Source: a virus. From it: 64,000 nt of DNA. Below are positions 11,881-59,254 of this stretch, one piece after another. Location: the IMG/VR virus record IMGVR_UViG_3300045988_159115; one strand, 5' to 3'. Made by a program: the position numbers and the translations under genes. The notes beneath the pieces are model-generated. The model saw nothing but the letters and a program-made list of their open reading frames with translations, made no database searches and was not told the DNA's origin. How positions within the stretch are numbered: position 1 is the first letter of the stretch; every line of letters begins with the position of its first letter.

Positions 11881-11895
11881 GTTTGTTTTCAGGCC
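11881..11895 (-). promoter_or_regulatory. class I promoter-like motif GGCCTGAAAACAAAC
   Basis: Sits between terminator 11912-11946 and the SD/ATG of the beta gene (48 nt upstream); one of at least 10 similar sites. Confidence 0.5.
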
Positions 11896-36380: not shown

Positions 36381-36425
36381 ATTAAACACCTTCCTTTGTA
36401 TTAGATTTTGTTAGGAGTATTAAAG

Positions 36426-36440
36426 ATGTGTTTTCACGCC
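36426..36440 (-). promoter_or_regulatory. class I promoter-like motif GGCGTGAAAACACAT
   Basis: 45 nt upstream of the ATG at 36380; preceded by ATATGG, as at sites 11881 and 61671. Confidence 0.45.
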
Positions 36441-36445
36441 ATATC

Positions 36446-36628
36446 TTACGAGGCAATATCATTCCAAATAATCATCAGAGATATTCCTCGTTCTGAGTCA
36501 CTTACTTCTTCTTCACTGATATATGAGCATTTCATGCATCCATACCAGATGTCTATATATCCAGTTTTATTATTCAACTTACTACATTTATAAACTCTAT
36601 TGGATTTACACATGGGGCACTCTCTCAT
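36446..36628 (-). CDS. small zinc-ribbon protein
   Basis: 60 aa with CPMC...GCMKC; AAGGAG SD. Confidence 0.6.
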   Translation of the reverse strand: MRECPMCKSNRVYKCSKLNNKTGYIDIWYGCMKCSYISEEEVSDSERGISLMIIWNDIAS

Positions 36629-36661
36629 AACACAGCCACTCCTTATTTTTTCGATGTGTGT

Positions 36662-36712
36662 ATTGATACATGAAGCACAAACGGCTTATACGAATGTGCT
36701 TCATGTATCAAT
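36662..36712 (-). terminator. 17-bp perfect hairpin (no U-tract)
   Basis: ATTGATACATGAAGCAC / GTGCTTCATGTATCAAT. Confidence 0.45.
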
Positions 36713-36788
36713 GTAAGATTAGAATAGATTCTTAGCGTCTTTAGCAAAATCGTTTGCTTTACGCGCAGTATTTGCTCCTTGAATAGCT

Positions 36789-45485: not shown

Positions 45486-45668
45486 ATGAGTAATACCATC
45501 CTTTCATTACGATATTGAGTAATCTAATGCCGAAGCATCTTTAAGATTTGTCCTGAGATATTACTCCTTAGTTACAAGAACTTCTCCATATTCCAATTAC
45601 CAGGCTTTCCATGCACACTGGGATTACCATTATCTGTCCATATAATGATAGCGCCAGTGCAATAAGAT

Positions 45669-45845
45669 TTAACTTTTTTGGTCCGCCTGTACCGATGATC
45701 CTTCAGGAATATCTTTAGTAGCTCCATTACTTTCAGAGCCAAAGATAAGGACGCCCTTGATATTATATGCTCTTTTCAGAGGATTTCCTTTTGAATCAAA
45801 TGCCGATTTAAGTAAGGATGAGCTCGATACATCATAGATAGCCAT
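45669..45845 (-). CDS. small ORF (58 aa) missed by the ORF track; possibly continues in the +1 frame to 45572
   Basis: AAGGGAGGG SD 8 nt upstream of the ATG at 45845; the ORF stops just after an A6 run; the +1 frame encodes a further 33 protein-like codons (...IWTDNGNPSVHGKPGNW...). Confidence 0.45.
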   Translation of the reverse strand: MAIYDVSSSSLLKSAFDSKGNPLKRAYNIKGVLIFGSESNGATKDIPEGSSVQADQKS

Positions 45846-45858
45846 ATATTGCCCTCCC

Positions 45859-46994: not shown

Positions 46995-48068
46995 TTACTC
47001 AATGATCTGTGCCCAGATATCGGTATCAGCCAGATCAGCAGGCTGCTCAGCCTGGCAGAAGAAGCGAGCACGAGCATTGACGGCAGCTGTCAGAGTACCC
47101 TCGACGCCCTTTGCACGAGCAGCCTCAGCGTCGGCAGCCTTCTGTGCGTTGTCAGCAGCAGTCTTTGCGGTAGCAGCAGAAGCACTTGCAGCATCTGCAA
47201 CAGCCTTAGCGTATGCAACAACAGAAGTAGCGTTAGCACCGGTACCAGCGGTGGGGATTGTACCAACCTTGGTAGTCAGGGCATTGATCTTATCGGTGTT
47301 TGCCTTCTCTGCAGCCTTTGCACGAGTTGCCTCATCGTTAGCTGCCTTCTGAGCTGCTGCAGCTGCGGTGTTAGCGTTTGTACCAGCAGCCTTTGCATCG
47401 GCTGCCAGAGCTGCTGCGTATGCAACGACAGTAGCGGAATTAGCGCCGGTGCCGGTTGTAGGGATCGCACCAACCTTAGTGGTCAGGTCGGTGATCTTCT
47501 TGTTCATCGCAGATGCGTCATCGGGGTGGCTCTGAATCCAAGCAGCGATCTCGCCCAGAGTATCCAGAGACTCCTTAGCACCATCGGGGATCAGCTGTGC
47601 AGCCAGCTCCTCGTTAGCGATGGTACGGACAGACTTGTTTGCATCCTTGCCAACCAGAGTGGTGATCTTACCCTCGGCAGCAGTCATGCGCTCGCCAAGC
47701 TTGGTGATGTTGCCAGCATTAGCAGTCTCAGCAGCCTTTGCTCGAGCAATCTCACCAGCCAGATCGGTAGTAACCTTTGCGATCTTACCAGCCAGAGAAG
47801 TAGCGTCCTTCTCATTAGTCAGCTCAGCCTTCAGAGCAGCGACCTTGTCGTCGATCTGCTTAGAAATAGAGGTTGCATCGTCAGTGCCAAGCAGCTTATC
47901 CAGCTTAGCCTTTGCAGCAGCAACGTCAGCATCGACAACAGCCAGCTTCTGAGTCAGAGTCTGACTGTCAGTGACCATGACCAGCTCTGCAGAAGTCTTA
48001 ACATACAGATCGTAAACGACCTTGTTAAGCTGCTTCTTCAGAAGGACCTTCTTAATATTAGATGCCAT
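46995..48068 (-). CDS. tail-fibre-like protein (coiled coil, Ala-rich, internal tandem repeat)
   Basis: Ala/Lys/Thr-rich coiled-coil text; two ~69-aa repeats; C-terminus ...EQPADLADTDIWAQIIE resembles common phage fibre tips; start ATG 48068 after AAGGAG. Confidence 0.65.
   Translation of the reverse strand: MASNIKKVLLKKQLNKVVYDLYVKTSAELVMVTDSQTLTQKLAVVDADVAAAKAKLDKLLGTDDATSISKQIDDKVAALKAELTNEKDATSLAGKIAKVTTDLAGEIARAKAAETANAGNITKLGERMTAAEGKITTLVGKDANKSVRTIANEELAAQLIPDGAKESLDTLGEIAAWIQSHPDDASAMNKKITDLTTKVGAIPTTGTGANSATVVAYAAALAADAKAAGTNANTAAAAAQKAANDEATRAKAAEKANTDKINALTTKVGTIPTAGTGANATSVVAYAKAVADAASASAATAKTAADNAQKAADAEAARAKGVEGTLTAAVNARARFFCQAEQPADLADTDIWAQIIE
47082..47495 (-). repeat. in-frame tandem duplication (2 x ~207 nt) within the tail-fibre gene
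   Basis: I(T/N)(D/A)LTTKVG(A/T)IPT(T/A)GTGAN..(T/S)VVAYA.A.A....A......A...AQKAA(N/D).EA.RAK occurs twice. Confidence 0.8.
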
Positions 48069-48186
48069 ATTAAAAATCACTCCTTAAAAAGTTATTTCTA
48101 TAGATATAAACTGGGATAGCCGAGTCGCTATCCCTTGTTTGTATCATAGCATTTAATAAGATGTTTATGGTTAATCTGGAGGCTGG

Positions 48187-49215: not shown

Positions 49216-52185
49216 TTAAACCTCAGTATATCTACTGAGCATCATCACCATCAAGCCATTATAATTGAAGTTCGGACGGATAACGATCTTATTATTCTTC
49301 TGGTAGTTTGTCCAGACAGCAGGATAGTTGTTTTGGACATTCGTACCATCAAGAATCCAAGACTGAGGCTTCGTAACTCCACGCGGAATGATGATATCCG
49401 TATAGAATCGCTTCATATCCGTAGTATCTGCATCCGGAGTAACTGCATCATTGACATTAGGCTCAAGATTCTCACCCGGTTTACCACCAAGCTCGCCATA
49501 TTTATCTTTGATAAGCCAGTCAAGAAAATCATCCTTCGTCTTATTATCAATACCCGGATTATTGAGAAACTCATCCATCGGAGTGTTTTCTTTATTCGGC
49601 TTATTGGTAGAGAAAATGGAAGGATCCATATCCTTTTTATAAATGGCAAGATTCAAACGAGATGCGACATTATAAAGCTTGATAAATCTACCAGTGATGC
49701 ATTCAATGTTATAATGGAACAGTCGACGACCATTCAGATAGACTTCGTAATAGTCGAGACTAAACGGAGTATCCAAATAATCTGCTGTATCAATCATATA
49801 GTTTTCCGGAATTTCCGGAATGAATGCAACACGCTTGTACGAATACGGTGTAACATCAGTTGATTGCACGTACTCTGTTGTAGTCGGGAAATAGTCCGTT
49901 CGTGCTACAAGCTTGTACGGGCCATCGCTTTCAATCTTGATATTACAAACGATTCGACGTCTATCCACAAATGTACGAAGATAAGAAGCTTCCTCGATCC
50001 AAGGGATAGCATTCTTCAGAATACCATATCGCTGGACATTCATCATCGGAGGAGTGACATCATGACGAATGAAAGAATCCTTATTCACGATGAAGGTATA
50101 AGTCACATTGACTTTACTAGCATCATTCAGTTTCACTTTCATTCGAGTGAGATGCATATATTTCGGAAGATCTTTCTCCACATTCGGAGTGATCTTCATA
50201 TACATTTCACCCTTTTCACCATCAATAACTTCGACATTTGCGGGAATACCGCATTTTTCTTTTCTCTCAGCAAGACTGAGCTTCTTATTATAGTCGCTCA
50301 TATTCACTAAGGTATAGAAGGAGAAAAGATCTTTATCAATCTTCTCAACTTCATCCTTGCGAACGAACAGGTCATGCCAAGTAGGAATCATGGACGATGC
50401 ATCCGTGAAATCCATATCCCACACTTCATCTGTGGATTTGAAAGCATGCTTCTTATAATAAGAATAGTAGTCAAACCGTTCGATTACGATGTGAGAGATC
50501 GGTGTGATAAACTCCTTAGGAATATAAATATAATCAAACTCGCCGACGTGAATCTGAAGATATTTTGTACACAGGAGTCCATCAATAAAGTATCGAAGTT
50601 GCAGACTATTCGGACCGTCATTTCGGAAGACAAGCAGATATCTAGTTTCCTCGAATTGGATCGGATTCTTCGGATCTTCTTTTGCAGTGCTAGTACGCTC
50701 ACGCTTCGGAAGGTCAACGTTACCAGCATACATGTAATAGAGATCGGAAGTAGGATTCGTAGTACCGATGTATTTTTCCTGCGGCTTCGGCTCAAGAAGA
50801 CCCCATTGTTTTGCCTTATCAATCTTGTAGTCATACGAATCCGGATACTGATTCGACTTGATGAAATCACCATGATTATAAATATAATCGGGGTCTTCAT
50901 ACTCGAACGTAGTCTCAAAATACTTCTTAGTAGGATCAAGAGACGGATCTACCTTATCATACAGAAGCTTATTGAGAGCACCTTCCAGATTAGTTTCACC
51001 ATACTTATCACTCATTTGCTTTTTGAAGAACTTGTGAATGTAGTCAAACTGATTGGTATATCTCAGATACCTCTCCATCGGACGATACAGATAAAAGAGT
51101 TTTACATCATATTTATCTGCAACATCTTTTGTCGTAACGATTTCATAGATATTCGGGTAATGCAGTCTGGTCAGATCACTGTAGTTAAAGTAGGTTACCT
51201 CACCAGTTGCCTTATCCTTAAAGAAAATAATGATATTCTCTTCAGGAATCGGCATATTGTAAGGAATACCTTCTTCTTCCTGAATGACAGCAATACATGA
51301 GTAATTCTCATTACTCGTACGCTTTCTCAGTGTCCGAAGTCCTTCCACCTCGTACATGTAGTTCGGATGGAAGAAAGTGATCTCAAACGTATTACCGCCA
51401 TGATGAGCAAAATAGTTTTTCAGCCAATCTGTTGCAGGAATAACCAGATTACCCTCGTCATCGACTCTACCATAGTTCAGGCTGTTACCCATGATCTCAT
51501 AACAGTTTTTCGTTGTCTTATTCACGCAACGGACTGTGTAGAAAATCGGGGTTCCTTTCATCAGGACACCAGTCAGAGTCTTACTGAAGATATAATTCTC
51601 AGCCTTTGCATCAAGAATATTCTTCAGTACGATTGTATTTGTCAGGAAGCTATGCGTCCAAGTATTTCGAAGCATAAATACTTCGATATTATGCTTTTCC
51701 TTGAAATAAGATGGCTTTGCAGGAAGATCGTGGAACACAATCTCGGTACGGCCATCCAGAGTACACTTAAAGCACACATTCAATGCAACCCGATTATCTA
51801 CGATTGCACACGGTGTAAATTCAAACACCGTTTCCGGAGAATACTCGGGTTTAAATTGCTTCTCTGATAAGTCTTCGGCAATGTCAGCATAAGTGATATA
51901 CTTACCGAAATACTTACTGTATTTATATACCTTACGCTTAGTCGCGTCAATAAAGTCTTTCGGAACAGAGATGCAAAGTTCCGTAGGGTAATTCTTATCC
52001 ACAAAGAAATTGGCTTGTGTGAAGTGGAATCGTTCCATACAACTGTAACTCTTTTGAACTCGCTTCAGAAACTGAAAAGAGTTCTCAACGGTTGTATGGA
52101 GCAATTTATTCAGCTCTTCTTCGTCATACGTACTATTCAGAATATTATCGTAATTCGGAGTGAGCTCACCGGTTAATTTACCCAT
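49216..52185 (-). CDS. large structural protein (baseplate/tail?)
   Basis: 989-aa ORF; GAAAGGGGAG SD; heads the fibre gene block. Confidence 0.75.
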   Translation of the reverse strand: MGKLTGELTPNYDNILNSTYDEEELNKLLHTTVENSFQFLKRVQKSYSCMERFHFTQANFFVDKNYPTELCISVPKDFIDATKRKVYKYSKYFGKYITYADIAEDLSEKQFKPEYSPETVFEFTPCAIVDNRVALNVCFKCTLDGRTEIVFHDLPAKPSYFKEKHNIEVFMLRNTWTHSFLTNTIVLKNILDAKAENYIFSKTLTGVLMKGTPIFYTVRCVNKTTKNCYEIMGNSLNYGRVDDEGNLVIPATDWLKNYFAHHGGNTFEITFFHPNYMYEVEGLRTLRKRTSNENYSCIAVIQEEEGIPYNMPIPEENIIIFFKDKATGEVTYFNYSDLTRLHYPNIYEIVTTKDVADKYDVKLFYLYRPMERYLRYTNQFDYIHKFFKKQMSDKYGETNLEGALNKLLYDKVDPSLDPTKKYFETTFEYEDPDYIYNHGDFIKSNQYPDSYDYKIDKAKQWGLLEPKPQEKYIGTTNPTSDLYYMYAGNVDLPKRERTSTAKEDPKNPIQFEETRYLLVFRNDGPNSLQLRYFIDGLLCTKYLQIHVGEFDYIYIPKEFITPISHIVIERFDYYSYYKKHAFKSTDEVWDMDFTDASSMIPTWHDLFVRKDEVEKIDKDLFSFYTLVNMSDYNKKLSLAERKEKCGIPANVEVIDGEKGEMYMKITPNVEKDLPKYMHLTRMKVKLNDASKVNVTYTFIVNKDSFIRHDVTPPMMNVQRYGILKNAIPWIEEASYLRTFVDRRRIVCNIKIESDGPYKLVARTDYFPTTTEYVQSTDVTPYSYKRVAFIPEIPENYMIDTADYLDTPFSLDYYEVYLNGRRLFHYNIECITGRFIKLYNVASRLNLAIYKKDMDPSIFSTNKPNKENTPMDEFLNNPGIDNKTKDDFLDWLIKDKYGELGGKPGENLEPNVNDAVTPDADTTDMKRFYTDIIIPRGVTKPQSWILDGTNVQNNYPAVWTNYQKNNKIVIRPNFNYNGLMVMMLSRYTEV

Positions 52186-52250
52186 AACTTCTATTATCTC
52201 CCCTTTCTTTTAGTATTTATCAATACAAGTGAAAGTCTAACTGATTAGAA

Positions 52251-52265
52251 TACTGTTTTCAGGTG
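52251..52265 (-). promoter_or_regulatory. class I promoter-like motif CACCTGAAAACAGTA
   Basis: 65 nt upstream of the ATG at 52185 and immediately downstream of hairpin 52272-52316. Confidence 0.5.
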
Positions 52266-52271
52266 GTATGT

Positions 52272-52316
52272 AAGATAGACACTGATACCCAATGAAGAAA
52301 TATCAGTGTCTATCTT
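52272..52316 (-). other. 16-bp perfect hairpin (terminator-like, no U-tract)
   Basis: AAGATAGACACTGATA / TATCAGTGTCTATCTT. Confidence 0.5.
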
Positions 52317-52352
52317 TGTCGGAAGTGCCAAAATGTGAAAGGAACATAGTGG

Positions 52353-52443
52353 TCCCCCACCGGGGTATCGGGCCCCATCTCACACCTATCTAGTGTCAAT
52401 GGAGGGGTATAGAGCCTCCTGCTTTCCTTAAGCTAATGGGGGA
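52353..52443. ncRNA. compact multi-hairpin element (candidate small structured RNA)
   Basis: A 7-bp closing stem TCCCCCA / TGGGGGA encloses three local hairpins (GGGG..CCCC, ACAC..GTGT, GGAGG..CCTCC). It does not fit a tRNA. Confidence 0.25.
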
Positions 52444-52462
52444 TATCTATCTAATTGTATCT

Positions 52463-52510
52463 ATAATAAAAATGCAGAGTAAGTTCACTGTTACGAAACT
52501 TACTCTGCAT
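52463..52510 (-). terminator. rho-independent terminator ending the transcript that covers 53922->52511
   Basis: 14-bp stem ATGCAGAGTAAGTT / AACTTACTCTGCAT followed on the - strand by TTTTATTAT. Confidence 0.8.
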
Positions 52511-53226
52511 AGTAATGCCAAAATCGAGTTACTCCAAACTTCGTGGCTCCATGCATTCGCGATCGTTATAACGTCGCCGATCGTTGGACAACTCTATCGT
52601 TGCTTTCTAAAAACCTTACCGGAATCAAACCGATAAGTTGAGAAGCACTTACACGAGCGCCTACGGCGGCGATATAATCTTTATGGGAATACACTTTAAC
52701 CGGGAGCATGAGAAATTTTACTCAACCCTATGGGACGGCCAAATATAGCCGTGAATCCATAATCGAACTCCTTTTCATACATGCCATGGCATACAGGCCC
52801 GACATTTCTACAGAAGCGTTGGCCAATGGCCTCTGTACCTCGAGCACTGTAAACGTTAATCAGTATTTTGAAGTCCACAACCGAAAGCAAATAACGATGC
52901 AAAGTCAAAAACTCAAATGACAATTGGAGGCAACCAAAAGCAACAAGAAAAAGACTGAAGTTACATGCCATATGATACTTCATACTGATTCCCCAGAATC
53001 TTACTGGGCCCGATATAGTTATGTGGAAGCTATATCATCGAACTTCGGGCGCTCGAGCGCGTCCTAACATAGAACGGAGGTCTATGTCTATCCAGTAGCC
53101 ACTACTCAAATGACCGGCGTCACTGACGGCGTCAGCCAACATGGGGCTACCAAGACCGAATGAGAAAAACTCATAGACACTGTCTACGATAAAAAACTCA
53201 TTCATACCATATAGTTGAGAAGATTT
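52511..53226 (-). ncRNA. candidate large structured non-coding RNA (or very long structured 3' UTR), ~715 nt
   Basis: No convincing ORF; visibly higher G+C than flanking genes; many local hairpins and palindromes (GCGCTCGAGCGC, TATGCCATGGCATA, GATATAG..CTATATC, ACATAGA..TCTATGT); bounded by the stop of gene 53227 and a terminator. Confidence 0.45.
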
Positions 53227-53922
53227 TTATTTATTTATATCATAATCCGGAGGGAGCTCTCCGTTCAGCTTAGCTGCTTTCAATTCAGCTTTCGCTTCAC
53301 GATTCCTCTTTATGAACATTGTGGTTCCGTGCTTTTCACGATACGGAAGCTTTATTTGGCCAAGATCAGTTACGCTATTTAACTCAGCCTTATTATACGT
53401 CTTTATTTTATCGCTATTATGCAGAGCAACGTCGACGAAGCGGCCTTCATTGATGATGTAGTTACCAGAGATCGAAGCATTCTCAAGATATGCACCAATC
53501 ATACAAGATTTCTCATAAAGATTGATGCAATTCCCTTTCTTCAAAACACAGTTCATCACTTTAGAGCTACAACCAACTACGCTATCATATATGGTAGAGT
53601 CTTCAATTGTAGCATCTTCCATAATAGCACTTTTCTTATCAATGATCGAATTTTTAACTTTTGCATTACCGGATACAAAACCAAACCGAACGACCGAGTT
53701 CACGATCTTTGCATTGGCACAAACGAAACCATTTGCCGCAAACACCCAACTCTTATCAGAATGAGTATTCGGAATTGCATCTTTGCTTGATACAAATCCT
53801 CCTTGTGTTCCACAAGGAATAAATGTCCCATCCATAGCAACAAAATCTTCCTGTGCAACGATCGTATACAACTCTTTGGAAAATGACGTTGCCGCAGCGG
53901 GAAGAAGCTTATACTTCGGCAT
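53227..53922 (-). CDS. beta-helix repeat protein (hexapeptide-like repeats)
   Basis: Repetitive ...ANAKIVNSVVRFGFVSGNAKVKNSIIDKKSAIMEDATIEDSTIYDSVVG...; start ATG 53922 after GAAGGGTG. Confidence 0.6.
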   Translation of the reverse strand: MPKYKLLPAAATSFSKELYTIVAQEDFVAMDGTFIPCGTQGGFVSSKDAIPNTHSDKSWVFAANGFVCANAKIVNSVVRFGFVSGNAKVKNSIIDKKSAIMEDATIEDSTIYDSVVGCSSKVMNCVLKKGNCINLYEKSCMIGAYLENASISGNYIINEGRFVDVALHNSDKIKTYNKAELNSVTDLGQIKLPYREKHGTTMFIKRNREAKAELKAAKLNGELPPDYDINK

Positions 53923-54699
53923 TTTCAACACCCTTCTTTCATGATTCAATAGAATACCAAGCCTAAATTAAGTACCTGTCTTTGCTATGGTAGATAATCA
54001 CTACTACACACGGAAATTGAAAGAACCGTATGTAGTAGTGATTACCCATGTAGGATGTGGATGTGTTACCTGCGTTCTGATCGCTCAAAACAGAAAGGTT
54101 ACTATGATGAGAGAAACTCATTGTATCTGTGTGCCCTTCATCCACTTAGGGCGGAAATAACTAAGAGAGGGAGGTTTAACCTTTCGTCTAATCCCATATG
54201 CGCCCTCAAAAACAGTACGAGGAACGCCACAGTAATTAGCCTTATGCAGCCAGGTCTGTGTCAACCTGGCACTCCAGCCTACCAAAGGATGCGTATACAT
54301 CTGTCTCTCCGAAGAGTCCGCATTTACTCCTCTGGCTGTTTTCGGAACCACAATGGCACATGCGAGAAAACCAGCCAACTCGGGCTATATGCACCAAGCC
54401 CACGCGTCCCTGTTATGAGCCATTATTGTTCACAATCCCCGTTTCCGGTAACTAAAGCCAGCTAAGCTATAGCGGATCATGGTCGGCTACACCTATCATA
54501 AAAGGGCAATAAGCGTTACATCTGTCGTCACGACAGTTGCTTCGGGATTTCACCGAATAAAAACCTTGCTTAGAATGAATTCTTTAATCCATTCTATCTC
54601 AATGTTAGAAGGTTGATTATTTATAAAAAAGATTCCATTCTAATTCCTGAGATTACGTTAGTGTAAGAAACTCAGTAGAAAAGAAAGGATTGGAATGAT
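53923..54699. ncRNA. candidate large structured non-coding RNA in a 777-nt divergent gap
   Basis: ORFs here are R/S/C/P-rich and lack an SD. The region is G+C-rich relative to its surroundings. It has a ~20-bp hairpin at 53994-54044 and nested helices (GCCAGGT..ACCTGGC at 54249-54270; TGGCTGTTTT 54334-54343 / AAAACCAGCCA 54367-54377; CTGTCG..CGACAG 54521-54536). Confidence 0.4.
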
Positions 54700-56343: not shown

Positions 56344-58449
56344 TTATTCCTCATCGTTGACTTCATCAATCACCGAATCAGAATCGGTGGACATTGCATG
56401 GTCCTCGATGAACCGTTCCGTAGAAGTGGTCTTCTTGAAGTATGCGTCAATGTAAGAAGGAGCGTTCTTGATCGTAACCAAGTTATCGCTCATCAACTGA
56501 CGCTTGATGTCCTGACCAGCAAAGCCGAGCAGAGGAGACTTATTGTGCTCGATTGCACGAGAGACGGTAAGAATCTTGTACTTACCAACCTCATCCTTCG
56601 TAAAATCAGGACGCTCAAAATCAACATCTGGATCCTTACGAATCAGACGACTGATGATCAGCTCACCAGACAGTGCAGTTGCACCAATCTTTGCATCAAG
56701 CAGAAGGTCGGTAAACTTCTGTGCCATCTCATGATAGTTGGACGTGACGTTCTGATCTGCTTTCGCCTTACTATTCAGAAGACTCATCAGAGAGTACAGC
56801 GGCTTCGTCAGCTCGTTGTTCATGATGACGATACTGAACAGAGTAGTCAGTTCATTCATCTCAGAGAAACGAGCATAACCACGACCCTTACGAACGAGAT
56901 CAATCAGGTCATCCGTCAAGAACAGCTCACGGTCTTCATCCGTAGAAATCCAGATAGACTCATGAGTTTTCATGTTCTGCACATAGAAGCCGCCGAGCAC
57001 GTAGCTGTTGAACGAAGAATCTTCGTCCAGTTCATCTGCTTTCTGAATGGAAGTAGGATCAATCCAAACTGCCCAGTCTTCAATATCGGGAATTGCGTCA
57101 TCCCCAATCTTCGGACTCACCTCGCCACAGTACAGCTTGAAGAAACGATTGAACTCTTCAGAGAAGTTGATCTTCTCAGATACCGTGGTAAGCAGATGCT
57201 TTGCAGACAGAATCATCTGGTTCACAACCTTAGTGAACTCCTCAACTTCAAAGCCAACGACGCCAGCAGAAATATCGAAGTTCATCGTAGACGTACGGCC
57301 AAAACAAACATGACACACTTCATCATGACACGAACAAGTAATCGGACTACGGAAATTAACCCAAGTACCAATCAACTGCGTATCCTTTCTTGCATTCACA
57401 AGACGGATTTCGCCATTTGCATCAACGTAGTACCGGTTGTTATACTTCTGAAGCATCTGAGGAGTTTTGATATAAATCTTCAGATAATGCTTCGTTCCAC
57501 AATCCGACACGGTCTTGGACAGAGACAAAGTACGTGCCAACAGAAGGACAAGCTTACCGAAATAGCCAGCATTGCCCATGACCTTCTTATTCATAATCAG
57601 AGATTTGCGAGCGCCCAATGCATCAATGTAATGAGAACTCGGTTTATCCAGACCACGAATCAGAGTAGAAGAGTTGATAGGAAGCGGGATGGTAATACCA
57701 GCAAGGTCAGGTTTCAAGCCCATATGAGCAGTGAACTCAACGAGCTGCTTGTGCTTAATGCCCGTATCCGCACGAAGAATCGTACCAACGGGATCATCCT
57801 TCCGAGATTTGATCTCAGCGATCAATCTCTTCTGAATATCAGCCAGAGAATCTTCAATCTCACTCGGCTGCATATCAAGCGGGAATCTGGTTTCCATCAG
57901 CTCACGAAGGGTAGGATCATCACGATACCAATGCAGGAACGTTTCACTGGACATCGTCAGACCCATAATCAGAGAGAAGTTGATCGAAATGCTTCGCAGA
58001 TCATGAAGCACATTCGAAATAGAGTTGTTGACTGTGGTATTTCGCACACTGTAATCTCTCAGTGCAGTGACGATTTTCTGATCAATGTAGTCCTTCAGAT
58101 GAGGAACTTCATTCCAGCAGTCAAAGATATAGTTTTCATCCATCTCGAAGTCCGTATCATACAGATTCACGAGAGGATGCCACATGAAAAGATTGATGAG
58201 AAAGTGACGCAGTTGAAGCGTATGAATCTTCTCATCACGGTTCTCTTTATAAAACTTGAAAGGCACCATATACTCACGGCAATCTTTCTTTTCAAAGCAC
58301 CCTTTTACGATCATGTAGATTTGATCAACCAGCGCACTATAATCTTCGTCGCACCTCATATAGTCGTTGATGAAATAAATTGGGCGTAAAAACGTCTTCA
58401 GTTCTTCAACGTCATGAATCTCAGGGACAATGTTGCTGTTGCTACTCAT
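56344..58449 (-). CDS. phage RNA polymerase beta-prime-like subunit, C-terminal half (bridge helix)
   Basis: IDALGARKSLIMNKKVMGNAGYFGKLVLLLAR parallels the beta-prime bridge helix G.RKGL.DTALKTA.SGYLTRRLV. Confidence 0.7.
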   Translation of the reverse strand: MSSNSNIVPEIHDVEELKTFLRPIYFINDYMRCDEDYSALVDQIYMIVKGCFEKKDCREYMVPFKFYKENRDEKIHTLQLRHFLINLFMWHPLVNLYDTDFEMDENYIFDCWNEVPHLKDYIDQKIVTALRDYSVRNTTVNNSISNVLHDLRSISINFSLIMGLTMSSETFLHWYRDDPTLRELMETRFPLDMQPSEIEDSLADIQKRLIAEIKSRKDDPVGTILRADTGIKHKQLVEFTAHMGLKPDLAGITIPLPINSSTLIRGLDKPSSHYIDALGARKSLIMNKKVMGNAGYFGKLVLLLARTLSLSKTVSDCGTKHYLKIYIKTPQMLQKYNNRYYVDANGEIRLVNARKDTQLIGTWVNFRSPITCSCHDEVCHVCFGRTSTMNFDISAGVVGFEVEEFTKVVNQMILSAKHLLTTVSEKINFSEEFNRFFKLYCGEVSPKIGDDAIPDIEDWAVWIDPTSIQKADELDEDSSFNSYVLGGFYVQNMKTHESIWISTDEDRELFLTDDLIDLVRKGRGYARFSEMNELTTLFSIVIMNNELTKPLYSLMSLLNSKAKADQNVTSNYHEMAQKFTDLLLDAKIGATALSGELIISRLIRKDPDVDFERPDFTKDEVGKYKILTVSRAIEHNKSPLLGFAGQDIKRQLMSDNLVTIKNAPSYIDAYFKKTTSTERFIEDHAMSTDSDSVIDEVNDEE

Positions 58450-58648: not shown

Positions 58649-58736
58649 GTCACCGTGGTGGAATTTTGGCAGACACGTAGCTCTGAGGCGGCTATCCGTT
58701 TAATTATGGGTCCCGGTTCAAGCCCGGGCGGTGACA
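58649..58736 (+). tRNA. tRNA-Leu (anticodon GAG), class II with long variable arm, no encoded CCA
   Basis: Acceptor GTCACCG/CGGTGAC; U8; anticodon stem TAGCT/GGCTA with loop CTGAGGC; long variable arm; T arm CCCGG-TTCAAGC-CCGGG. Confidence 0.8.
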
Positions 58737-58741
58737 CTCAC

Positions 58742-58819
58742 GCTAGATTAGCTCAGTTGGCAGAGCGATTGATTTGTAATCAATAGGTTCCTAGGGTTCG
58801 AGCCCCTAATCTAGCTCCA
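58742..58819 (+). tRNA. tRNA-Thr (anticodon UGU), CCA encoded
   Basis: Acceptor GCTAGAT/ATCTAGC; D arm GCTC-AGTTGGCA-GAGC; anticodon stem ATTGA/TCAAT with loop TTTGTAA; T arm TAGGG-TTCGAGC-CCCTA; 7-nt variable region. Confidence 0.75.
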
Positions 58820-58862
58820 AAAAATACCAGGTGGATAGATAATATTCTACCTGGTATTTTTA
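58820..58862 (+). terminator. rho-independent terminator after the tRNA-Leu/Thr pair
   Basis: AAATACCAGGT / ACCTGGTATTT followed by TTTATT. Confidence 0.8.
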
Positions 58863-58909
58863 TTCATTTAAATGCAATAGACGATTTATAATAAATTATA
58901 AATCTATAA

Positions 58910-58927
58910 CTATATTATATCATATAT
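58910..58927 (+). promoter_or_regulatory. AT-rich class II box CTATATTATATCATATAT abutting tRNA-Ser
   Basis: Ends at the tRNA 5' end; contains the TATATTATA core. Confidence 0.35.
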
Positions 58928-59019
58928 GCCAGTGTGGTGGAGTTGGTCGAACACACCGGTCCTGAAAACCGGCATACGCTAATAACGTATCCTCGGATCG
59001 TACCCGAGCGCTGGCGCCA
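58928..59019 (+). tRNA. tRNA-Ser (anticodon UGA), class II, CCA encoded, atypical loops
   Basis: Acceptor GCCAGTG/CGCTGGC; U8; anticodon stem CCGGT/ACCGG with loop CCTGAAA (C at position 33); variable arm ATACG..CGTAT; T arm CTCGG-ATCGTAC-CCGAG (A at position 54). Confidence 0.65.
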
Positions 59020-59020
59020 T

Positions 59021-59047
59021 AGAGGATGACAACATCCTCTCATTTTT
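59021..59047 (+). terminator. rho-independent terminator after tRNA-Ser
   Basis: AGAGGATG-ACAA-CATCCTCT followed by CATTTTT. Confidence 0.8.
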
Positions 59048-59180
59048 GATATCACCGTGACAGTAATCTTCATTGTTGTGTCATGGATTGGACATATATT
59101 TGACCTCCTAAAAATCAGATACTTTCACCTACCATATCTTCTGCTTGACCTGGATGTGGTAGGTGTTAGTATCCCAATAA

Positions 59181-59254
59181 TGAGGCGTAGGCCAATGGTA
59201 AGCCAGTGTTCTTTGAAAGCACTGAATCCGGATCGTAACCGGGCGCCTCAGCCA
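59181..59254 (+). tRNA. tRNA-Gln (anticodon UUG), CCA encoded
   Basis: Acceptor TGAGGCG/CGCCTCA; U8; anticodon stem GTGTT/AGCAC with loop CTTTGAA; T arm TCCGG-ATCGTAA-CCGGG (A at position 54). Confidence 0.7.

Follow-up and report, generated by a model that had tools for sequence, protein, structure and literature searches.

The window (the whole 64,000-nt stretch of DNA analysed) comes from a ~255-kb jumbo phage with AR9-like multisubunit RNA polymerases, for which an RNAP beta' homologue was detected. Its largest intergenic gap measures 1,041 nt (52186-53226) and separates two minus-strand genes, one for a 240-aa hexapeptide-repeat protein and one for a 989-aa protein. Within this gap a preliminary description had singled out a ~715-nt interval. 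The interval is real, and the gap still stands out as the biggest in the window; however, it is larger than had been stated, and the remark that all other gaps are below 200 nt was wrong, as three more measure 370 to 610 nt, one of them being the tRNA cluster. That cluster, described as lying about 5 kb away, was located at a distance of 5.4 kb (58649-59254), and ARAGORN called four tRNAs only in the window. The interval is indeed richer in G+C than its two flanking genes (0.44 versus 0.39 to 0.40), but this feature is unremarkable, since 22% of 716-nt windows across the 64 kb have a G+C content at least as high. The features of the locus are as follows.

53227-53949, minus strand: upstream neighbour, the 240-aa hexapeptide-repeat gene
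53205-53216, minus strand: promoter-like motif AACT-ATATGG-TA (AACTATATGGTA), directly past the upstream stop codon
52463-53205, minus strand: candidate RNA gene, ~743 nt, counted from the predicted start through the U-tract of the terminator
53205-53035: 56-aa ORF, second longest in the interval
52983-52696: 95-aa ATG ORF, longest in the interval
52467-52510, minus strand: predicted intrinsic terminator (14-bp stem, 11-nt loop, UUUUU)
52350-52442, minus strand: tRNA-like gene, just downstream of the terminator (25 to 90 nt from the RNA across loci)
52274-52314, minus strand: strong hairpin past the tRNA-like gene, without a U-tract
52245-52263, minus strand: late-promoter motif CCTGAAAACAGTATTCTAA of the 989-aa gene, invariant in all clades
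49216-52185, minus strand: downstream neighbour, the 989-aa ORF

Transcription signals and the adjacent tRNA-like gene

The promoter-like motif fits AAC[A/T]-N6-TA, which places the predicted transcription start at its final A (53205). Late promoters of AR9 have the form AACA-N6-TA/G, with the last base as start site (PMC5312081), and the copy in front of the RNA (AACT-N6-TA) is one base off the AACA of that consensus. Of 28 AACA-N6-TA sites in the window, 18 are intergenic, compared with an expectation of 11.6% (P = 6e-11). A sub-type, AAC[AT]A[AT]NNNGTAT, occurs in the window and eight relatives only before the RNA, the tRNA(UAU) gene, and the tRNA cluster. The transcript had been thought to read through from the upstream gene (then called a beta-helix gene), but with its own promoter-like motif right after that gene's stop the RNA is probably not run on from it.

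At the other end, the terminator previously placed at 52463-52510 was recovered as a 14-bp stem (52510-52497 with 52485-52472) followed by UUUUUAUUAU. Eight of its 12 homologous stem pairs covary across clades, and five to six U residues follow the stem in all of them. The motif CCTGAAAACAGTATTCTAA further downstream matches an extended consensus found 35 to 105 nt upstream of most genes in the window. As the 989-aa gene thus has a separate promoter motif, the RNA is not that gene's leader. The hairpin at 52274-52314 keeps its structure between clades with compensatory changes.

The tRNA-like gene (52442-52350) had been overlooked in the earlier reading. At minimum free energy it folds into a cloverleaf that has a long variable arm and UAU in the middle of the anticodon loop, and it encodes ACCA. 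Its amino-acid identity would be Ile or, in view of the long variable arm and A73, Leu or Ser. The acceptor and variable-arm stems covary. At the homologous position in three sister-clade loci (L009, L010, and L015), ARAGORN and Rfam (54 to 55 bits) identify a tRNA with anticodon UAU, whereas the copy in the window receives no ARAGORN call and no match to Rfam RF00005 at 29 bits or more. By inspection, we found no conserved complement in the RNA for a T-box-like pairing with the anticodon or NCCA end of this neighbouring tRNA.

Conservation and coding potential

Among clade-A relatives, the RNA region is 94 to 99% identical, compared with 82 to 93% at codon position 3 of the flanking genes. 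It changes about three times more slowly than their third codon positions. Approximately 10 single-nucleotide indels fall in the interval among near-identical relatives, and none fall in the flanking genes. Counted pairwise between the window and each relative, there are 5 to 11 gap columns in the RNA interval and 0 to 3 in the two flanking genes. The 95-aa and 56-aa ORFs are shortened to 6 to 10 codons in six of nine close relatives and are missing from the two other clades, and no conserved peptide was found between clades. We reject a coding function, including one involving recoded stop codons, because indels shift the frame, the ORFs are cut short, and no peptide is conserved. The initial view of the interval as ORF-free is thus effectively correct, and homologous phages keep no reading frame here. 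Overall, these comparisons show that the putative RNA is non-coding yet under purifying selection.

Fold, covariation, and self-complementary elements

The RNA region is 56 to 69% identical among three phage clades (A, B, and C), and a single fold is common to all. The clade B and C versions lie at L009:4918-5696 and L010:4835-5663. Curation of the fold gave 174 pairs; every one is canonical in the window, and 19 are G.U. We read the fold on the minus strand because G.U pairs are frequent. The impression of a hairpin-dense sequence was borne out by an MFE of -242 kcal/mol (764 nt, minus strand; z = -4.76 versus dinucleotide shuffles). The z score of the plus strand is -4.55, and the minus-strand MFE is 37 kcal/mol lower than that of the plus strand. 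The fold is organized as follows.

53067-53204, minus strand: 5' variable hairpins H1 (53204-53157), H2 (53156-53089), and H3 (53087-53067)
52858-53064, minus strand: 5' core domain, with H4, H5, H6 (loop UAAGAUU), and long-range helices H7-H10
53046-53038, minus strand: invariant GAAGUUCGA, within the 5' core domain
52729-52857, minus strand: central domain, with junction AACGUU(U/C)ACAG, H11, H12, and H13a/b
52820-52827, minus strand: H11 apical loop AUUGGCCA, holding the 6-nt palindrome UGGCCA
52781-52792, minus strand: H12, perfect 12-nt palindrome AUGCCAUGGCAU
52772-52762, minus strand: invariant AGGAGUUCGAU, within the central domain
52511-52728, minus strand: 3' domain, nested long-range helices around H16; least conserved domain
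52637-52615, minus strand: H16, 8-bp stem and 7-nt loop UUUGAUU
52533-52525, minus strand: invariant AGUAACUCG, within the 3' domain

Covariation among related phages, which had been proposed as a check on an RNA reading, was found. In a hand-made three-clade alignment of 13 helices, 32 of 76 homologous pairs covary on both sides and 97.3% are canonical, compared with 0 to 4 covarying pairs and 32 to 38% canonical pairs in register-shifted controls. The hand alignment was drawn with the structure in mind and model-based alignments lean to their model; with only three independent clades, one or two events underlie each covarying pair. H1-H3 are outside these counts because their homology cannot be assigned pair by pair: a hairpin stands at each place in all three clades (H1 starting 0 to 3 nt past the predicted start in every one), but sequence and length are unrelated. 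When the full RNA was aligned with MAFFT, most helices were misaligned between clades, so pair counting relied on the hand and covariance-model alignments instead.

Covariance models R1, R2, and R3 were built from clade A alone and used to search clades B and C. In the three resulting alignments, 94 to 98% of cells are paired, compared with 31 to 47% in slid controls. R2 (5' core domain) found clades B and C at E = 1e-9 to 1e-12; 94.2% of its cells are paired (33 to 44% when slid), and 16 of 45 pairs changed on both sides (0 to 2 when slid), a count reached in none of 500 shuffles. Long-range nested helices spanning 130 to 200 nt covary in this alignment. R1 (central domain) found both clades at E = 8e-5 to 6e-3, with 96.5% of cells paired (31 to 47% when slid) and nine of 34 pairs changed on both sides (0 to 1 when slid), again reached in none of 500 shuffles. 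For R3 (3' domain), whose structure is that of RNAalifold and was not hand-curated, the inner part found clade B at E ~1e-6, and the search of clade C gave no match; 97.7% of cells are paired (38 to 45% when slid), and seven of 58 pairs changed on both sides. Many covarying pairs pass via G.U. Across the three clades, compensatory changes thus show that the predicted multi-domain secondary structure is kept.

One element of the RNAalifold structure was rejected. Its closing helix, formed by a region upstream of the predicted start (CUCAACUAUAUGG) with CCAUAGGGUUGAG, is missing from clade B, and CCAUA pairs instead with UAUGG at 52761-52757 (H13a), with two compensatory changes. Lying upstream of the predicted start, the CUCAACUAUAUGG piece is better explained as promoter.

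The palindromes listed in the preliminary description are all present, although two had been misread: that given as TATGCCATGGCATA is really GTATGCCATGGCATGT, with a perfect core ATGCCATGGCAT at 52792-52781, and that given as CTGACGGCGTCAG is the plus-strand reading of CTGACGCCGTCAG. In the H11 apical loop, TGGCCA is invariant in 14 of 14 sequences of the three clades, whereas the closing stem differs; we infer that this is a kissing loop. H12 reads AUGC-CAUG-GCAU, AUGU-AGCU-ACAU, or AUGC-AAUU-GCAU, depending on the clade, so that the self-complementarity of the central four bases is kept through double changes. As adjacent bases cannot pair intramolecularly, covariation at the H12 center points to intermolecular pairing. 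Kretsch et al. (2025) made the same adjacent-base argument for OLE L9.3 and GOLLD L21a (PMC12286853). Together, the UGGCCA loop and the covarying H12 center (CAUG/AGCU/AAUU) suggest self-association of the RNA. The conserved palindromes, invariant or few as they are, could instead be protein sites at the DNA level, and H12 could be a simple tetraloop hairpin.

Family range, possible function, and comparison with other large RNAs

No Rfam 15 family matched, either at the gathering threshold on the whole window or at E <= 10 on the element from clades A, B, and C; this included the classes named earlier as worth checking (GOLLD, ROOL, raiA, HEARO, and group I/II introns). The whole loci L009 and L010 were searched at E <= 1. 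Across all these runs, tRNAs and noise alone came back, the noise being rliE, with 27 bits where its gathering score is 90, and models of miRNAs or snoRNAs. ARAGORN found no tmRNA in the window, and neither ARAGORN nor Rfam matched tmRNA, RNase P RNA, 6S, or other housekeeping RNAs. With no match in any clade, the RNA can be identified with neither GOLLD nor ROOL, nor with an intron, tmRNA, or RNase P RNA, and the caution with which no class had been assigned was well placed. Searches of 50,697 phage records with the whole gap (blastn) and of cultured phages with the 989-aa protein (tblastn) gave no match.

Wider homologues were sought with three DNA patterns, each of two or three islands, over IMG/VR, the JGI metagenome collection, and 185,579 species genomes, and all true pattern matches fall within the same phage group. 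The loci L019, L020, L022-L024, L026, L030, L032, and L036-L039 were set aside as chance pattern matches, being without blastn similarity, co-occurring islands, or a covariance-model match. Distant relatives of the 989-aa protein (~30% identity) have upstream gaps of ~100 nt, and models R1 and R2 found nothing at their loci.

We conclude that 53205-52463 on the minus strand is very probably a gene that is transcribed independently and specifies a ~740-nt non-coding RNA, highly structured and of an undescribed family. Conservation, the indel pattern, covariation, and strand-specific G.U pairs support the original proposal of a large structured minus-strand RNA that ends at the terminator at 52463-52510. 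Within the reach of the searches, the family is confined to one group of ~250- to 263-kb jumbo phages.

What the RNA does can be approached from its setting and its fold. It would be a late transcript of the phage's non-virion RNA polymerase, initiated at a promoter variant common to phage tRNA genes, which would place it, together with the tRNA(UAU)-type gene, in a stable-RNA set of the phage. It may act as a folded particle rather than by base-pairing to a target, self-associating via the invariant UGGCCA loop and the covarying H12 in the manner of OLE, ROOL, and GOLLD, and it probably has a late-infection role connected with tRNA or translation. Our tentative proposal, which we regard as possible but rather doubtful in its entirety, is that the RNA represents a giant phage RNA class of its own, the third after GOLLD and ROOL and independent of both. 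It would form RNA-only homo-oligomers through the UGGCCA kissing loop and the 12-bp self-complementary duplex, be made late by the phage's multisubunit polymerase along with the unusual long-variable-arm tRNA(UAU), and act on the infected cell's tRNA or translation machinery.

Some of the same features would fit a catalytic or RNP RNA serving the phage tRNAs and not forming a self-assembling particle, which we consider unlikely; it could be a processing ribozyme, or else a scaffold or decoy binding ribosomes or host defence enzymes that modify or cleave tRNA. The RNA always adjoins the tRNA(UAU)-type gene, and the two have a promoter sub-type in common. Several invariant GUUCGA/GUUCGAU motifs, together with a hairpin reminiscent of a T arm (8-bp stem, 7-nt loop), resemble tRNA T-loops, a likeness drawn by eye only. 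An invariant Shine-Dalgarno-like AAGGAG is followed by AUG mini-ORFs, and GOLLD binds ribosomes in pull-downs (PMC12286853). However, no RNase P, tmRNA, T-box, or ribozyme model matches, ARAGORN reports no tmRNA, and no conserved complementarity to a tRNA anticodon or 3' end was found. It is highly improbable that the element acts in cis within a neighbouring mRNA, whether as a long 3' UTR to the hexapeptide-repeat gene or as the leader of, or a riboswitch for, the 989-aa gene. The orientation is the same as that of both genes, but the promoter-type motif comes right after the upstream stop and the fold begins 0 to 3 nt past the predicted start in all clades, while the covarying terminator, the tRNA gene, and a full late-promoter motif stand between the element and the 989-aa gene. 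Moreover, 740 nt of conserved multi-domain structure far exceeds known leaders, and the distant relatives of the 989-aa gene lack the RNA.

More improbable still is an element acting as DNA (an origin of replication, a packaging site, or arrayed palindromes to which proteins bind). Perfect palindromes are numerous (GCGCTCGAGCGC, ATGCCATGGCAT, TGGCCA, and AACGTT), and the MFE z scores are similar on both strands (-4.76 and -4.55). Against this, G.U accounts for 19 of the 174 pairs in the window, and many covarying pairs go through a G.U state; such pairs would become A.C mismatches in DNA or in the opposite strand. In addition, the minus-strand MFE is the lower by 37 kcal/mol, the nested helices spanning 130 to 200 nt covary, and a promoter motif and a terminator frame the element. 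A degenerate self-splicing intron, the remnant of a mobile ribozyme, or a decayed protein gene is the least probable origin and is largely refuted. The 95-aa ORF and the island GUUCACAG, which we take to resemble part of the group I "R" element, could be read in this way. AR9-type phages do carry group I introns (PMC5312081). However, no group I/II intron matched even at E <= 10 in any clade, and the element, which has no homing endonuclease, interrupts no gene: its two neighbours are complete, and each has a stop, a start, and a promoter of its own. It evolves more slowly than synonymous sites, as a decaying remnant would not, and its ORFs are not conserved.

To our knowledge, only a handful of natural RNAs above 500 nt in length have conserved, ornate folds. 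The phage-borne GOLLD and ROOL RNAs were recently shown to build protein-free nanocages. A further RNA of that size, unrelated to them but likewise encoded beside tRNA genes and predicted to be expressed late, would show that phages have come to this strategy repeatedly and that it is more than an oddity of two families. The candidate RNA would also tie a large ornate-type RNA to the transcription program of AR9-like jumbo phages, and it offers a compact, well-delimited candidate, available in three sequence variants, for cryo-EM and genetics.

The candidate RNA resembles GOLLD in several ways. Both are large (~740 to 830 nt here; many GOLLD members exceed 800 nt) and phage encoded near tRNA genes, with a tRNA directly 3' here and one sometimes embedded in GOLLD. 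Each has one better conserved and one more variable part, and late or lytic expression, measured for GOLLD, is only predicted here. Both have conserved self-complementary loops, which in GOLLD form symmetric kissing loops (PMC12286853). In contrast, the GOLLD model matched none of the three clades in sequence or structure, even with the cutoff relaxed to E <= 10. Conservation here lies in the 5' and central parts, with a variable 3' domain, the reverse of GOLLD, and the present RNA occurs in one narrow jumbo-phage group, whereas GOLLD is spread over many bacterial phyla. ROOL shares the phage or prophage location, often near tRNA islands, the large multi-helix fold, and the lack of a known protein partner (PMC12286853), but its model does not match, and the jumbo-phage RNA is larger and without established pseudoknots. 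GOLLD and ROOL form RNA-only homo-oligomeric nanocages; the UGGCCA loop and the covarying H12 are indirect hints of such assembly here.

In OLE, the tetranucleotide of the L9.3 loop (bridge B3) switches among the palindromes GGCC, GAUC, and AGCU, which shows that it pairs between molecules (PMC12286853). The H12 center switches similarly among CAUG, AGCU, and AAUU, and the second loop here keeps UGGCCA. However, the RNA and its host context are unrelated to OLE, a bacterial membrane-associated RNP, and a dimer has been solved for OLE but is inferred from sequence here. Finally, the tRNA genes and islands of jumbo phages share with this RNA the promoter sub-type, the strand logic, and adjacency to the tRNA(UAU)-type gene, although the RNA itself is neither a tRNA nor a tRNA array.

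A large structured RNA gene and its predicted transcription

The RNA (53205-52463, - strand; ~743 nt) is a real, well-delimited large structured RNA gene, apparently an undescribed one, as no published description of it was found in the literature. The preliminary description had proposed a large non-coding RNA at 52511-53226, and the proposal holds on the - strand, given constraint without a reading frame, compensatory pairs, a strand signal from G.U pairs and a bounding terminator. By its sequence, the window is part of a jumbo phage genome. Near-identical contigs of 250-263 kb are present in IMG/VR and ENA, and ORF 56344-58449 (- strand) matches phage RNA polymerase beta/beta' families (phrog_3015; E = 4.5e-48), its nearest cultured relatives being those of Bacillus phages PBS1, AR9 and similar, at only ~29% identity. 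No intergenic gap of the window is larger than the one that holds the RNA (52186-53226; 1041 nt), and the tRNA cluster noticed nearby was located as four genes at 58649-59254. Two other gaps of ~370-400 nt each (36390-36788 and 45486-45858) gave no Rfam match at gathering threshold. Elsewhere, ORF 46995-48080 carries internal direct repeats of ~190 nt at ~47090-47500 (70-75% identity), seen as secondary blastn matches between the window and relatives.

Features of the gap and its neighbours, in order of transcription
Gap neighbour, - strand: 240-aa hexapeptide-repeat (left-handed beta-helix) gene
53216-53205, - strand: promoter-like motif of the RNA, AACTATATGGTA, directly after the beta-helix gene's stop codon
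52510-52467, - strand: terminator, the 3' end of the RNA; 8 of 12 homologous stem pairs covary and the U-tract is kept
52350-52442, - strand: tRNA-like gene, 25 nt past the terminator (homologues L009:5740-5832, L010:5713-5806, L015:1892-1985, L018:6085-6179)
52274-52314, - strand: hairpin of 14-19 bp, past the tRNA-like gene and ahead of the 989-aa gene's promoter, with compensatory changes between clades and no U-tract
Gap neighbour, - strand: 989-aa ORF without family match

Late promoters of phage AR9 read AACA-N6-TA/G, with the start site at the last base, and its single tRNA gene is a late gene (PMC5312081). Of the 28 AACA-N6-TA sites in the window, 18 fall between genes, where 11.6% would be expected (P = 6e-11). 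The majority of the intergenic sites lie 35-105 nt upstream of a same-strand gene and have the extended, late-promoter-like form CCTGAAAACA-N6-TAA, which stands at that distance upstream of most genes (for example, at 11887, 17154, 19411, 23820, 26690, 36432, 38989, 44721, 52257 and 61677). The phage appears to use AR9-like promoters despite the low polymerase identity. Across the window and the loci of 8 relatives, the sub-type AAC[AT]A[AT]NNNGTAT (53216, - strand; 58600, + strand) occurs only before the RNA, the tRNA(UAU) gene and the tRNA cluster, and the first hairpin of the RNA begins 0-3 nt past the predicted start in every clade. Both observations argue that the RNA is transcribed as its own unit, in the phage's class of stable RNAs, rather than as the run-on from the beta-helix gene that had been envisaged, since the RNA has its own motif just after that gene's stop codon. 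Its transcription is probably late. The RNA is not the leader of the 989-aa gene, because the terminator is followed, in order, by a weaker version of the RNA's promoter-like motif, the tRNA-like gene, the covarying hairpin and that gene's own full late-promoter motif and Shine-Dalgarno site. Clade A (the window and 8 close relatives) alone has, within the first hairpin, an 8-bp hairpin followed by GUUUUUC (53171-53189, - strand) that scored as terminator-like; clades B and C do not conserve it. It could block transcripts running through from the beta-helix gene, or serve in attenuation of the RNA.

Constraint and conserved structure

Flanking-protein searches and DNA patterns recovered the 8 close relatives of clade A (88-99% identical at the interval) and 5 members of two further phage lineages, clades B (L009, L018, L029) and C (L010, L015). 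Judged from these sequences, the interval is non-coding yet under constraint. Between the window and each of four close relatives it is 94-99% identical, against 82-93% at codon position 3 of the flanking genes, and it holds 5-11 single-base gap columns, against 0 and 3 in those genes. The window's 95-aa and 56-aa ORFs are reduced to 6-10 codons in 6 of the 9 clade-A genomes and are missing from clades B and C; the interval thus lacks a credible ORF, as first read, and no conserved coding frame was found in related phages. Matches between clades are short and scattered over several frames of both strands, which indicates conservation of nucleotides and not of protein. A frame rescued by stop-codon recoding is ruled out, because recoding cannot restore a frame across the indels.

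The interval, earlier called hairpin-dense, folds much better than shuffled sequence (-242 kcal/mol on the - strand, z = -4.76; -205 kcal/mol on the + strand). The terminator's 14-bp stem and U-tract lie where they had been placed, and the palindromes reported for the interval all exist, although two had been copied with slips. Its G+C richness is real (0.44, versus 0.39-0.40 in flanking genes) but carries no weight, because 22% of stretches of that length match or exceed it.

Clades A, B and C are 56-69% identical over the gap. They share invariant islands (GCCCGAAGUUC, CCAGUAAGAUUC, GAUYAACGUUYACAG, UGGCCA, CUGUAUG, AGGAGUUCGAU, UAAAAUUYCU and AGUAACUC), between which the sequence differs but hairpins occupy the same places. 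In a structure-aware hand alignment of 13 helices, 32 of 76 homologous pairs have pairing-preserving changes on both sides and 97.3% of cells are canonical; with the 3' partner slid 1-3 nt, these values fall to 0-4 pairs and 32-38%. As MAFFT misaligns most helices between clades, covariance models were built from clade A alone, and Infernal then aligned the remaining clades.

Covariance models of the RNA (values with slid partners in parentheses; such alignments lean towards the model)
R1, central domain, 52727-52861: clades B and C recovered; 96.5% of cells paired (31-47%); 9 of 34 pairs changed on both sides (0-1)
R2, 5' core, 52855-53067: clades B and C recovered; 94.2% of cells paired (33-44%); 16 of 45 pairs changed on both sides (0-2)
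R3, 3' domain, 52513-52728, structure from RNAalifold and not hand-curated: inner part recovered in clade B only, clade C not recovered; 97.7% of cells paired (38-45%); 7 of 58 pairs changed on both sides (0-2)

No shuffle matched the observed covariation scores of R1, R2 or R3. Alignment of homologous regions, as suggested in the preliminary description, finds compensatory changes above slid controls, across only three deep lineages. The compiled fold of the window RNA has 174 pairs, all canonical and 19 of them G.U; these, together with covariation that runs through G.U intermediates, identify the - strand as functional and favour RNA over DNA.

No Rfam 15 family gave a plausible alignment even at E = 10 in any of the three clades, including GOLLD, ROOL, raiA, HEARO, OLE, group I/II introns, RNase P RNA, tmRNA, 6S RNA and riboswitches, so that the Rfam comparison first proposed for GOLLD, ROOL, raiA, HEARO and the introns assigned no class. 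ARAGORN found no tmRNA. Similar DNA was not found in cultured phages, and scanning IMG/VR, the JGI metagenomes and 185,579 species genomes with DNA patterns returned only the same phage group and chance matches. Distant relatives of the 989-aa gene have no comparable gap and no covariance-model match.

The adjacent tRNA-like gene

The copies of the tRNA-like gene in clade C and L009 are bona fide tRNAs with anticodon UAU, a long variable arm and A73. Leu, Ser and Tyr tRNAs normally have this type II shape; Ile tRNAs do not. The copies in clade A, L018 and L029 have diverged (C at position 33, T-loop CCCGAUA, 5-nt D-loop) and receive no ARAGORN or Rfam call; they still fold as a cloverleaf and keep ACCA, and both the acceptor stem and the variable stem show compensatory changes. 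The altered anticodon loop may serve escape from host anticodon nucleases (compare PMC10264068). The hairpin at 52274-52314 may terminate the tRNA transcript or be a site of its processing. L018 and L029 combine a clade-B large RNA with a clade-A-type tRNA-like gene, whereas L009 has the canonical tRNA, which points to recombination between phage lineages inside this 1-kb stretch.

Possible role and known analogues

We tentatively favour, as a possibility rather than an expectation, a stable self-associating RNA particle that would be produced late in infection. Two palindromic features and the analogy with GOLLD and ROOL lead us there. The apical loop of helix H11 is AUUGGCCA, in which UGGCCA is invariant in 14 of 14 sequences while the stem beneath differs. 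H12 is fully palindromic over 12 nt in all three clades, and the four bases at its centre change from CAUG to AGCU to AAUU by double substitutions that keep self-complementarity. Because neighbouring bases have no way of pairing inside a single chain, such changes are those expected of an intermolecular duplex. A third palindrome, an invariant AACGUU, lies in the junction joining the two core domains.

A tie to tRNA or translation is weaker. It would draw on the adjacent tRNA gene, the common promoter type, T-loop-like GUUCGA motifs and an invariant AAGGAG with mini-ORFs. At 52729-52775 (- strand), the invariant island AAGGAGUUCGAU is Shine-Dalgarno-like (AAGGAG) and precedes an AUG opening a mini-ORF of 2-10 codons in all three clades (AUGGAU...UAG; AUGAUGUAG; AUGAUAUUGAAUCUGUAG), the peptides not being conserved. 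This could be a ribosome-binding feature, or it could be chance, because the bases form helix H13a.

For the self-associating particle, the RNAs that come nearest are GOLLD and ROOL, which are likewise large, ornate, phage-borne, near tRNA genes and without known function; the RNA resembles them in kind and is a member of neither family. The two assemble into RNA-only cages through kissing loops and A-minor contacts, and Kretsch et al. used the same adjacent-base argument for OLE L9.3 (GGCC/GAUC/AGCU) and GOLLD L21a (PMC12286853).
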